A program made the position numbers and the translations under genes. The notes beneath the pieces were generated by a model. That model made no database searches and had not been told where the DNA came from. It saw only the letters and a program-made list of their open reading frames with translations. From Patellaria atrata CBS 101060 (lineage: Eukaryota), in the NCBI GenBank assembly GCA_010093705.1, contig MU006095.1, positions 1,116,001 to 1,152,815 of the forward strand: DNA of 36,815 nt, in the 5' to 3' direction. Position 1 is the stretch's first letter. Every line of letters starts with the position of its first letter. Below are positions 6,593 through 10,838 of the stretch, one piece after another.

Positions 6593-6637
6593 TACTGTAC
6601 CATTGTACTGTACCATTGTACTGTACCATTGTACTGT
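6593..6637. repeat. Minisatellite, 13-bp unit TACTGTACCATTG x3.5
   Basis: Read directly: units start at 6593, 6606 and 6619, with a partial unit at 6632. Confidence 0.9.
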
Positions 6638-6691
6638 GCTAGTAGTTCTACCGGGTTTCTGTTTTCATATCCAAGCTCAAGTTTGTTGGAT

Positions 6692-6746
6692 AGTTCCAGA
6701 GAAGTTCCAGAGGAGTTCCAGAGGAGTTCCAGAGGAGATCCAGAGG
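6692..6746. repeat. Minisatellite, 11-bp unit AGTTCCAGAGG x5
   Basis: Read directly: five units; the first and last each have one mismatch. Confidence 0.9.
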
Positions 6747-7364
6747 AGAAGAACAGCAGGTGAATTGATGGGATGGATATATAACCTGAGATGAGCAAAA
6801 AGATACTTTAAAGAAAGCTACAAGTCACATGATTGAATATTGACATCGATTTCCCTTGTTGAACAACGGCGCGGTTCACGCGTTTTATTGCAGTTTAGGT
6901 ATGGTGTTGTTGCTCCCGGTCCTTGGTATTCGTGGTTGGTATGGTTAGTATAATTAGTGGTAGGAAGGCCTCAAAGTCGGCCGTGCTCTCCGTGGTTGCT
7001 AACTTTGCTGGCCAAACCTCATCCACTACTCGGCATCCACTTCTGCAGCTTTTCCCTTCCATTATTTCCCTCTCGCCTGTTTCGACCTTGGAACCTTCGA
7101 CCCCTCCTTCTGGTTCAGGTTCTGCTCATCGCTCATCGCATCCACCTTCTCTCAGCAACCTTGAACCCCAACTCATCATCTCCACGTCCCGGACACTACA
7201 CATATCTATCTCTTTTCTTCTCTTTTTCTATCTCTCTGTTGATACTGTTTCTCCTCATCTCGTCTTCCTTTGCGTTGCGGGTCTTGGTGCTTTACTGCTT
7301 ACCTTCAATATCTGGAGTCTCAGTCTCGACCTTTTTGCATTGTTGCGGCTCTGCTTGTCATCTG

Positions 7365-8168
7365 GTAAGTGAGTGCTCTTTTTCCTTCATGATTTTTTTT
7401 TTATCGCATCATGCTACAGTACCCAATTCGCTCTGTTTCCCTGTCGCCTGCACCTCAACCTCGATCAGCCTCATCCGACCCCGCGGTCTCGCCCAACAAC
7501 CACTCCCGCGCTCGAGGTATATTTATACACCCTACGCTCACTGTGCGCATTGCAATGTTGCTCCCAATGACTTCGTCATCGCTTCAACATTCGACCTTCA
7601 CATGAGATCCTTTCACAAACTCCCAGTTTAACCGAAGGCCTACTGTCACCCCAGGGCACACGCTTTCGGCGCAACCTTTTTTGTACTTTGTACATTCCCC
7701 TCTTATCCAGCGCTAGTCCTGTAACCTCGTCATTCACCTATCTGTGTTCATAAAGCGTCCGTTCGGATTGCATTGCGACATGCGCATGCGCATGTGATTC
7801 TCCAAAGTGTCACCTAAGCTCACATTCGCATCTAGGTTCGCAAGTGACCTACCTATTCTACAGCGTCGAATATCCTTCAATCAAACAAACCTTCATTCAC
7901 GGATATCACGCGCTTTCGAGGTTCGGTCAACACAATCTTATCCCCGTACTTAAGAGTTCGTCCGCCAGCCAAATTTCTACGGGCAATAAACTTTTATCCA
8001 CATTCTCATTCGACGTAATCTACGTACCACACAACCGTACCTGCATCCGCTGTCTCACTTTTATAATCTGGCGAACGGCTTATAGCTCTATTCTTCCGCT
8101 GCTTGTATGCTACGTCATTCGGGATCCAGCCTATAACTGCACAACTTCCGCTAACCAATCCGGCGCAG
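7365..8168 (+). other. Long, possibly nested or multi-step, 5'-UTR intron of the Nam8-family gene
   Basis: Donor GTAAGT at 7365 overlaps GTGAGT at 7369, after a CT-rich leader. Branch GCTAAC 8150-8155 with CAG at 8168, then an ATG-free 120-nt leader to the ATG at 8289. Internal branch/acceptor GCTCAC..TAG at 7835 and internal donor GTATGC at 8105. Confidence 0.6.
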
Positions 8169-8288
8169 ACTTTAGAACTACTACCCTTCGCTCTCTTGCA
8201 ACGGTTTCGCACGAGTCTTCGACTTTCTTTGCGCAGTTCAATTTATCACTAGTGTTCATCTAGCTACTAGCAATACCTCGCAGTCAAG

Positions 8289-9750
8289 ATGAGTTTCCCA
8301 AACTATGATCAGTTTCAAGGTCAGCCTGGCGCTGAGGATGCTGGCGCTCCAGGCGCACCCGGTCAACAACAACAGCAACAGCAACCTGGCCAGCAGATAG
8401 AGAATGCTGCGGGACAATTTCAAGGTGGCAACATGGGTCCAGGATCTGCCGGTCAACAACAGCAAGGAGACAGCTCCAAGACAACTCTCTGGTACGTCAC
8501 TTGGAACGACAGGCTACAATAGAAGTTGAAATGCGAATGTATACGACAACATCATACTAACGGGCCTTGCAGGATGGGCGAATTGGAACCTTGGATTGAC
8601 GAAAACTTCGTCCGCAGTATTTGGTTTGGCATGGGGGAGCAAGTCAACGTCAAGATGATCCGCGACAAATTCTCAGGGTAAGGCAATCCAACCACCCCGA
8701 ATGATGATACAGTATTAACCAATTTCCGAAGAAGCAACGCCGGTTATTGCTTCGTTGATTTCGCTTCTCCTGAAGCCGCAGCGAAAGCCTTGAATTTGAA
8801 CGGAACTCTAATCCCGAACTCCAGTCGACCATTCAAGTTGAACTGGGCATCTGGTGGCGGGCTTGCTGATCGCAGGTATGTTACACCGCATTCTGGAATC
8901 GGCCAACTGACTTTCTCGATAGCCGAGACGACCGCGGACCCGAATTTTCCATTTTCGTCGGTGATCTCGGACCTGAGGTAAATGAATACGTACTTGTATC
9001 CCTTTTCCAAAATCGCTTCCCGTCATGCAAATCTGCCAAGATCATGTCCGATCCGCTCACTGGAATGTCGCGCGGCTATGGATTTGTCCGCTTCTCCGAC
9101 GAATCAGAGCAGCAGCGAGCATTGGTCGACATGCAAGGCGTGTACTGCGGTAACCGCCCGATGCGCATCTCTACCGCAACCCCAAAGAATAAGAGTGGGG
9201 GTCCAGGTCCCGCCGGTATGGCTATGGGCGCAGGTGGTGCTATGGGCGCCGGACCTGTTGGAATGTTCGGCATGGGGGCACCGCCGATGGGTTACTACGG
9301 CGGTGGTGCTGCACCATCACAGCCTATGAACCAGTTCACGGATCCAAACAACACCACAGTCTTTGTTGGCGGTCTTTCTGGTTACGTCACCGAGGATGAG
9401 TTACGGTCTTTCTTCCAGGGATTCGGTGAGATTACATACGTTAAGATTCCACCCGGCAAAGGTTGCGGTTTTGTTCAGTTCGTACAACGACACGCCGCAG
9501 AAATGGCAATCAACCAGATGCAGGGCTATCCGATTGGAAACTCTAGGGTCAGGCTTTCCTGGGGCCGTAGTCAGAACAATTCCGGTCCGGCCGGCACCCC
9601 TTACCGACCAGCACCACCACCGCCAGTCTACCCATCCATGGGAGGTATGCCTCCTCAAAATCATTACGGCAATTTCGCTCCTTTCAAGGTAAGTGCGGCA
9701 ACGGTAAACGCGTCCGTCTCCGCCGACAATGCTAACCTGGGTTTCAGTAA
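8289..9750 (+). CDS. NAM8: Three-RRM RNA-binding protein of the Nam8/Ngr1/Csx1 (TIA-1-related) family
   Basis: Exons 8289-8491, 8573-8677, 8732(or 8735)-8875, 8923-9688, 9748-9750 (stop only). RRM1 KTTLWMGELEPWIDENF..NAGYCFVDF..FKLNWASGG; RRM2 EFSIFVGDLGPEVNE..SRGYGFVRF..RPMRISTATPK; RRM3 DPNNTTVFVGGLS..GKGCGFVQF..RVRLSWGRS; Q-rich N-terminus. Nam8 versus Ngr1 orthology is not resolvable by eye. Confidence 0.9.
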
Positions 9751-10637
9751 GCGCATTCCATCCTTCTTGATGTTTCTTTAGCGGGGAGTTCATTACGTCG
9801 AGCACTGGTAGCTCTACAAACGATCGGCTGTTCATTATCTCTCATGTTGCATGCCACGTAACGAACCTACATCCCTCTCTTCACCAAAACATCTCTCATT
9901 GGACTTTACTCATGGGTGGTTTATGCCAATTCTTGCAAAAAAAAGTGTTTATTATCATTCTTTCCTTCTGCACGGTCTTATTTATTTTTCCCCCATACTC
10001 GGTGGTCTAGAGAAAATCAATGCCTCTTTGTACAACAGTGGGTTCCCCATGCACTGCTGGGCCTCTCATCGAACGGATTGCTCTTGCTGTTCTGTTTTCT
10101 TCATTCACTTCTGCCTTGTAGCTTAGCTATAGTTCTTGGTCAGTCTGATAGCGTTGGGGATGGCGGACTCGGCTTCTTCATTATACCGAGAACTTGCAAG
10201 TGCGAAGTCTCGACGTCTGACGGCTGTTGCTTGTCCCCGGCATCTGAAATAAGACTCATGATTTCACAATCAATTTCCTTGTTGCGGATGTTGGAAAAAA
10301 AAAAAATAAACAGCGTGTTCATGCATGAGTTTGTAATGTCATGTTCTGTCCGCTAAACGTTGTACAATTGTTTACCTTTGCTCGCAAAGCTTTGAGGTTC
10401 AGCAGTACAGTACTACTATTATGTCTAGTTACGTGTTTTACAGGTTGTGCGCTCCAGCGATTCTTGCATGCTTGTCCTGATCCAGTCAAGTATTTGGTTG
10501 AATTCTGCTCTGCTTACATGTACAGTCCACGCATTGCATCCGTCGTTTTGCGCGCATCTGCTACAGCAACACCCTTCTGGCCACGTTCGCTAACAAGACC
10601 GTCTGTTTAACACAGTCCTGTCAACTTCCCCTTCCAA

Positions 10638-10838
10638 ATGCATCCCGGTTACACATTTCCAGCTTTTGGCCCGCCTCGTCCTATGGCTCCGATCTCTCCC
10701 CTGACCGCGGAACCCACTCATACTACGCTCGATGCGCTCACCGACCGTATGAATGAGCTGGAAGTTGAGAAAAGGCGTCCGCGTGACAGCTTCGATCCTG
10801 ACACGAGTGGGCCCATAGTTCGTACTCCCAAACCTTGA
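10638..10838 (+). CDS. Small 66-aa hypothetical protein or uORF
   Basis: ATG in good context (CCAAATG) after a pyrimidine-rich leader, with protein-like composition (Pro-rich ends, helical core TLDALTDRMNELEVEKRR). No recognised domain. Confidence 0.5.
   Translation: MHPGYTFPAFGPPRPMAPISPLTAEPTHTTLDALTDRMNELEVEKRRPRDSFDPDTSGPIVRTPKP

Follow-up and report, generated by a model that had tools for sequence, protein, structure and literature searches.

The stretch analyzed here, 36,815 nucleotides (nt) of Patellaria atrata CBS 101060 (assembly GCA_010093705.1, contig MU006095.1, positions 1,116,001 to 1,152,815 of the forward strand; hereafter the window), carries on its plus strand a Nam8-like gene whose 5' leader a first-pass annotation had read as a candidate spliceosomal twin intron, or stwintron. 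The coding sequence (CDS) of the gene model occupies exons at 8289-8491, 8573-8677, 8732-8875, and 8923-9688, opens with an ATG at 8289, closes with the stop codon at 9748-9750, and specifies a protein of 406 amino acids. The CDS introns measure 81, 54, 47, and 59 nt; in all four, 12-13 nt separate the AG from a branch site that is either of CTRAC type or TTAAC. The assignment of the gene to the Nam8 family in the first-pass annotation is borne out as sequence similarity. CDS exon 4 matches RRM_1 in two stretches (Pfam, E=4.7e-34), and its best match among solved structures is the yeast NAM8 chain 5zwn_V (E=1.3e-58), with SECP43, TIA-1, and PUB1 as the next families at E values of about 1e-23. 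Within the three-RRM group of yeast Nam8, Ngr1/Pub1, and TIA-1, the exon is therefore nearest to the NAM8 chains and shares with the group its two RRM_1 stretches; the NAM8 chain differs in having 523 rather than 406 amino acids, and similarity does not separate Nam8 from Ngr1-type paralogs. From similarity only, we infer a role of the protein in the U1 small nuclear ribonucleoprotein (snRNP). The leader of this gene probably contains two ordinary spliceosomal introns around a conserved non-coding exon, and not a stwintron.

Motif positions were read from window positions 6600-10800 and then checked by script. Both the reading and the script found every motif claimed by the first-pass annotation where it had been placed. 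Overlapping donors start at 7365 and 7369 within GTAAGTGAGT (7365-7374); GCTCAC occupies 7818-7823, with a TAG ending at 7835 and GTTCGC running from 7836; 8105 is the first base of GTATGC; and GCTAAC occupies 8150-8155, with a CAG ending at 8168. The claimed regeneration of a donor is also spelled out in the sequence, as fusing 7368 to 7836 gives GTAAGT. A permissive motif scan of 7300-8288 returned donors at 7365, 7369, 7543, 7836, 7956, and 8105, and found branch sites paired with a YAG only at 7822/7835 and 8154/8168. How much weight can such motifs bear? At least one complete short intron was present in 17.5% of 2000 shuffles of 7836-8288. Across 80 related loci, a second donor at +4 accompanies 18 of 545 GT[AG]AGT hexamers (3.3%), and a GT directly follows 2004 of 39900 YAG trinucleotides (5.0%). 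Taken alone, the motif content of the leader is not above chance.

These related loci, designated by L numbers, were sought with window positions 8924-9688 (CDS exon 4), and the best 80 of 462 metagenome stretches were kept. They show 77-89% protein identity and 73-77% DNA identity in exon 4, so that none is close. Thirteen of the 80 loci are without CDS introns and are termed transcript contigs, a status inferred from the missing introns; the spacing from CDS exon 2 to exon 4 is 243-249 nt in these contigs (306 nt in one) versus 350 nt in the window. A blastn search of the 80 loci with the leader gave only two weak hits, and megablast among the loci gave one usable near-identical pair, L056/L068, which has no intron within the covered part of its leader, a part that is not linked to the conserved blocks described below.

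The 3' part of non-coding exon 1 (7252-7364, plus strand) is a conserved leader block, recognized by alignment and by profiles. About 110 nt of non-coding sequence align in L004, L006, L020, L005, and L031 and end at a donor, G|GT[AG/C], homologous to 7365. Profiles detect the same block in the genomic loci L038, L022, L037/L039, the L078/L063/L070/L075/L076 group, and L066, as well as in the transcript contigs L007 and L067 and, more weakly, L042 and L080. In a second clade, comprising L043, L046, and L047, a GTATGT donor lies behind a similar block. A GT follows the block in 12/12 distinct relatives in which the block was found, at the place held in the window by the GTAAGT at 7365-7370, the donor of leader intron 1. 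The second, overlapping donor-like hexamer, GTGAGT at 7369-7374, is specific to the window sequence: the donor is single in each of the distinct relatives, and 0/12 have one at +4 of leader intron 1. Measured against the U1-complementary consensus, 7365, with G at -1 and GTAAGT, is also stronger than the overlapping 7369. Because the block ending at 7364 occurs in the transcript contigs L007, L067, and L042 of relatives, transcription most likely starts upstream of 7365. The plus strand has no ATG from 6944 to 7388.

The predicted leader intron 1 (7365-7835, plus strand) is 471 nt long, has a U-rich tract behind its donor, and contains 8 ATGs, all within 7389-7792 on the plus strand; its counterparts in relatives are 347-447 nt long. 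Its 3' end, 7818-7835, consists of the branch-site-like GCTCAC, with A at 7822, and the acceptor TAG, and has conserved homologs in relatives, in the form of a CT[GCA]AC-type branch site with a YAG (L004/L006, L020, L005, L031, L009, L043, L041/L045/L046, and L047). The distance from branch A to acceptor G is 13 nt, versus 12-13 nt in the four CDS introns. By local alignment, L009 included, and by motif scan, the GCTCAC...TAG of the window followed by GTTCGCAAGTGACC corresponds to the branch site and YAG of the relatives followed by NTTCGCGAGTGA, the conserved start of exon 2. The acceptor was aligned in eight distinct relatives (L004, L020, L005, L031, L009, L043, L046, and L047), in which the next two bases are AT, CT, AC, AC, TT, AT, AT, and CT, respectively; at the acceptors of L038 and L022, set by the L007 transcript, the next two bases are AT. 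A GT behind acceptor 1 is accordingly present in 0/10 relatives. The first-pass annotation had proposed an alignment of orthologous leaders as a check on its internal acceptor and the adjoining GT, and the two elements part company here: the internal branch site and YAG are conserved, and the GT behind them is found in no relative.

Could intron 1 end at the CAG at 7863 rather than at the TAG at 7835? Exon 2 would then begin 28 nt later and would have no GT start. L004 has a CTACAG similar to that at 7858-7863, and the sequence behind the latter aligned with L004/L020 in a first alignment. Better local alignments and the motif scan assign the conserved elements (branch site, YAG, and the start of the exon) to 7835, and the interval 8-22 nt upstream of 7863 contains no branch-site motif; we regard this shifted acceptor as quite unlikely. 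An earlier splice model of the relatives, with acceptor 1 at a CAG about 95 nt downstream, was dropped on finding the branch site, YAG, and exon start conserved upstream of it. Exon 2 has 0 ATG under that model and the final one alike.

With the acceptor at 7835, exon 2 would be a non-coding leader exon of 269 nt (7836-8104, plus strand) that has 0 ATG and a GT start found only in the window sequence. Its length is 269 nt in L004 as well, 268 nt in L009, and 254 nt in L020. An inner element, TTCATT[CA]ACG, is conserved some 60-90 nt into the segment and recurs in the transcript contig L042; the short-leader transcripts L080 and L018 are too diverged from L042 for an alignment to reveal any skipping of exon 2. 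Behind exon 2 lies the predicted leader intron 2 (8105-8168, plus strand; 64 nt, GTATGC...GCTAAC...CAG), recognized by motif scan and comparison with relatives. In 7/7 genomic relatives modeled, the equivalent place, 52-144 nt 5' of the start codon, is occupied by an intron of 64-94 nt whose donor is good and whose branch site, of CTRAC type, is followed by a YAG. The only ATG between 7793 and the start codon is at 8107, inside the GTATGC donor. Exon 3 (8169-8491, plus strand) begins with 120 nt of leader devoid of ATG and continues through the start codon at 8289 into the first coding part; its ATGAGTTTCC is conserved in relatives. It is conservation of position in the relatives that sets donor 7365 and acceptor 7835, together with the 8105-8168 intron, apart from chance motifs.

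Selection disfavors upstream ATGs in leaders and not in introns, and their distribution offers a test of which segments are retained. The pool consisted of the window with L004, L020, L005, L031, L043, L046, and L047, the near-duplicates L006, L041, and L045 and the transcript contig L009 being omitted. Pooled exon 2 (2119 nt) contains 0 ATG versus 25.8 expected (19.0 under a first-order Markov model), with 0 in 8/8 lineages. The pooled leader part of exon 3 has 0 ATG versus 8.0 expected, and the last 100 nt of exon 1 have 0 versus 5.6. Pooled intron 1 has 29 ATGs versus 32.7 expected, and pooled intron 2 has 7 versus 7.2. In the window alone, exon 2 has 0 ATG versus 3.0 expected (P of about 0.05), and intron 1 has 8 versus 4.8. 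The pooled pattern fits a putative retained exon between two introns, and not one long intron.

This bears directly on an alternative in which 7365-8168 is one ordinary long intron removed in a single step, its internal sites unused. Donor 7365 and the branch site and acceptor at 8154/8168 are all good enough to serve such an intron. Its length of 804 nt, however, would be about 10 times that of the CDS introns; the internal acceptor, the exon start, and the donor of the second intron are conserved; and exon 2 is depleted of ATGs and kept in the transcripts of relatives. Removal of the whole segment as one intron therefore seems extremely unlikely.

What do the transcript contigs of relatives retain? 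Upstream ATGs are absent from 9/11 contigs with leaders of 280-772 nt, the exceptions being L009 and L064. L007 has a 550-nt leader without an upstream ATG and maps onto genomic L038 and L022, of a third clade, as exon 1, exon 2, and exon 3. At their 5' ends the gaps in this map read GTAAGT or GTAAGC/GTGAGC, and at their 3' ends a branch site (CTGAC or CTAAT) precedes a TAG. In this clade, too, the leader comprises three exons: exon 1 carries the conserved block, exon 2 is non-coding and about 200 nt long, and exon 3 follows. In L009, the 268-nt equivalent of exon 2 passes directly into 102 nt equivalent to the leader part of exon 3, and no hexamer resembling a donor intervenes. L042 combines the block of exon 1 with the inner element of exon 2.

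L009 has a further feature. Its CDS introns and leader intron 2 are gone, yet about 260 nt 5' of the acceptor are kept (L009:1-261), including a T10 run and 3 ATGs; these are the upstream ATGs of L009, all of them 5' of the acceptor homolog, in what is apparently a retained intron 1. The contig could alternatively point to a main transcription start inside 'intron 1', 5' of 7836, in which case exon 1 would come from a minor promoter and the usual leader would consist of 7793-8104 and exon 3. L009 begins about 260 nt 5' of the acceptor homolog and does not extend to a block of exon 1; in the window, the zone without ATGs begins at 7793, 43 nt before the acceptor. The part of L009 5' of the acceptor has 3 ATGs, against none in 9/11 transcript contigs; the exon 1 block is present in L007, L067, and L042; and the conserved branch site and YAG at 7818-7835 are best explained as a used acceptor. 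An internal main start is consequently improbable.

We therefore return to two ordinary introns. Non-coding exon 1 would end at 7364, and intron 1, 7365-7835 (471 nt), would be spliced out; non-coding exon 2, 7836-8104 (269 nt), would be kept in the mature messenger RNA (mRNA); and intron 2, 8105-8168 (64 nt), would be removed, with exon 3 following from 8169 and the start codon at 8289. The resulting leader would be long and free of upstream ATGs, with a minimum length of 113+269+120 nt and a probable one of about 700 nt, like the orthologous mRNAs of related fungi. Each intron has a donor, branch site, and YAG of its own (7365/7822/7835 and 8105/8154/8168), the splice sites are conserved in position in orthologs, and the middle exon is found in transcripts, all from relatives and none from this organism. 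On this comparison, we infer that the junctions 7364^7836 and 8104^8169 are used in P. atrata. Most likely, the overlapping donor at 7369 and the GT that opens exon 2 are coincidences of one lineage that together mimic a nested intron. The first-pass annotation had itself listed, as an alternative, an ATG-free cassette exon at 7836-8104 using donor 8105. The exon and its donor now fit best, and the segment looks like a conserved regular exon rather than a cassette exon.

The predicted introns resemble ordinary leader introns of filamentous ascomycetes in their GT..AG ends, in their CTRAC-type branch sites 12-14 nt from the acceptor, in the shortness of the second intron, and in leader exons without upstream ATGs. 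They differ in that intron 1, at 471 nt, is 6-10 times longer than the CDS introns of its own gene, and in that the architecture and two leader blocks are conserved where the remaining leader has diverged.

Why not a stwintron? In the portions available of two source texts, a stwintron is defined by an external intron that is functional only after internal excision, two consecutive reactions being needed (PMC5639578, PMC5587772). The types named in the available portions of the literature are [D1,2], [D2,3], [A2,3], and [D5,6] (PMC5639578, PMC5587772, PMC6616335, PMC9024468, PMC12403724), and almost all stwintrons found so far are, as their authors put it there, [D1,2]. A [D4,5] type is not named in those portions, in which bracketed strings are unsearchable, so that this makes no claim about what is in print. 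As a stwintron, 7365-8168 would be a single unit of the [D4,5] type, removed in two obligatory steps, first 7369-7835 and then from the rebuilt GTAAGT to 8168, and the leader would lack 7836-8104. Several observations favor this. The nested geometry is present in the sequence, and 7369-7835 has its own GTGAGT, GCTCAC, and TAG. Stwintrons exist in Pezizomycotina, and on paper the leader resembles the donor-disrupted ones, in which a canonical internal U2 intron separates two nucleotides of the 6-nt external donor and leaves a canonical donor once excised; here, removal of the inner GT..AG intron would rebuild GTAAGT. There is also a precedent for swallowing an exon: according to the available text on Aspergillus niger rtnA, a 'secondary stwintron' removes the primary stwintron together with the exon and intron that come after it, by a minority route seen in <5% of clones (PMC6616335), and the outer unit here would likewise take in an exon and the next intron.

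One difference from the donor-disrupted stwintrons, as far as these are described in the portions available, is that the outer donor is complete. GTAAGT is intact at 7365-7370 in the unspliced sequence, the inner intron itself supplying G5 and T6, so two-step splicing is not forced and donor 7365 could be used directly with 7835 or 8168; it is also a better fit to the U1-complementary consensus than 7369. Furthermore, the hybrid motifs are kept in no ortholog, the doubled donor in 0/12 and the GT after the acceptor in 0/10. Nor would the sequence between the inner and outer acceptors be intronic throughout, as equivalents of 7836-8104 appear in the spliced contigs of relatives (L009, L042, and L007), and the segment is ATG-free in 8/8 lineages; the 'external intron' coincides with a conserved exon. 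Of the [D4,5] geometry proposed in the first-pass annotation, the formal nesting of the donors stands, and the dependence of the outer intron on excision of the inner one does not. The proposal that an ~800-nt leader intron is removed in two steps is likewise not supported, given an outer donor that is already complete, nesting motifs that are unconserved, and a 7836-8104 segment that is exon-like. An obligatory stwintron at this locus is very improbable.

A weaker version of the idea is compatible with two ordinary introns: as a minor route confined to this lineage, 7369-7835 would be excised, and the rebuilt GTAAGT would compete with 8105 for 8168, skipping exon 2. The sequence permits this, and as a donor the rebuilt GTAAGT surpasses the GTATGC of 8105. 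Precedents, as far as the available portions of the sources go, are the minority route of A. niger rtnA (PMC6616335) and the recursive splicing of annotated exons in animals (PMC6224609). In the latter, described for what are called RS-exons, an exon with GT as its first bases could, once joined to the upstream exon, restore a 5' splice site, and exon 2 of the window starts in this way. The likeness is limited by the donor: at the AG/GT of 7835/7836, the site regenerated via the conserved donor 7365 is a weak GTTCGC, and only joining via 7369 gives the strong GTAAGT; the arrangement is not conserved. Among the matches listed in our literature search, as far as their text was available, there was no fungal precedent for RS-exon recursive splicing. 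The features that would enable the minor route occur at background frequency (3.3% and 5.0%) and are likewise unconserved, and donor 7365 should outcompete 7369. We consider the route unlikely.

Several points weigh against the two-intron structure that we favor. The relatives are all distant (73-77% in exon 4 DNA) and consist of metagenome or metatranscriptome contigs, whose transcript status is inferred. The two sequencing runs listed for 6900-10300 contain DNA contigs identical to the window, possibly its source, and without joints, and no junction was observed directly; the verdict on P. atrata therefore rests on the comparison with the 80 loci. The eight lineages of the ATG pool are not independent, L005/L031 being sisters and L043/L046/L047 likewise. 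Intron 1 of L005 and of L031 holds 1 ATG each versus 4.5-4.9 expected, so that the depletion is not perfectly exon-specific. The ~260 nt that L009 keeps 5' of the acceptor and the 6 upstream ATGs of L064 indicate that some relatives retain an intron or start transcription internally. Finally, donor 8105 (GTATGC) has a C at position 6 and a flank that is not conserved, and the second CAG at 7863 is a possible alternative acceptor.

What would follow from either outcome? If this lineage alone had gained the +4 donor and the GT start of exon 2, and with them a 'secondary [D4,5] stwintron'-like skipping of exon 2, which we think unlikely, the part of the leader behind exon 1 in the mRNA of a U1 snRNP factor would shrink to about 120 nt, compared with about 390 nt otherwise. 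Such skipping could act as a splicing-dependent switch on the translation or stability of the factor's own mRNA, and it would be the first stwintron of this type in a leader. If exon 2 is simply retained, the locus serves as a caution: nested geometry read from motifs only can arise by chance wherever a pair of adjacent introns encloses an exon whose first bases happen to be GT, the chance of mimicry here being about 3% x 5% per intron pair. The comparative test is cheap and needs no RNA from the organism, since it uses the absence of ATGs across relatives and the retention of the segment in their transcripts. It also brings out a conserved leader architecture for the Nam8-like gene in these fungi: three exons, a long sequence without upstream ATGs, a long first intron, and conserved blocks. 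The leader of a splicing factor is a reasonable place to seek feedback control, which lends this architecture a mild interest. Among the matches listed for a search pairing Nam8 with 'UTR intron' in filamentous fungi (best 12 of 22), no paper does so.

The two conserved leader blocks, 7252-7364 and 7836-7975, stand out because the leader outside them no longer aligns at this distance. RNAalifold found no consensus RNA structure in the exon 1 block or in the start of exon 2, and the blocks may therefore be protein-binding or other primary-sequence signals. The open reading frames at 6957-7631 and 7844-8263 were rejected as coding, having neither an ATG start nor a Pfam match. A search of 6800-8400 against Rfam returned nothing credible, one microRNA model reaching 22 bits versus a gathering score of 70, so a small nucleolar RNA or other known RNA inside the long intron is not supported.

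Nam8 and TIA-1 prefer U-rich sequence downstream of 5' splice sites. A T-rich tract lies behind donor 1, with runs of T5 and T10 at window positions 7371-7410, and in 8/10 lineages (L038 and L022 excepted) the T fraction of intron 1 is 0.33-0.55 at +7 to +46 versus 0.23-0.28 in the remainder. The Nam8-like protein might, speculatively, act on its own leader intron. The plus strand has a strong pyrimidine bias throughout 7001-8000 (GC skew -0.35, AT skew -0.25), in leader exons and introns alike.

Farther upstream, the last ATG before the conserved block is at 6941, beside a TATAAT-like string at 6949-6954, and is followed by 445 nt of ATG-free plus strand; a transcription start shortly downstream of 6941-6955, with an exon 1 of about 300-400 nt, would be compatible with this. 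Two arrays of short tandem repeats lie 5' of the gene at 6600-6740, the first of CCATTGTACTGTA-like units and the second of AGAGGAGTTCCAG. At the other end of the gene, in the 9689-9750 region, the last CDS intron (59 nt) directly adjoins the stop codon TAA, and its retention would replace the stop with a C-terminal extension encoded in the intron.

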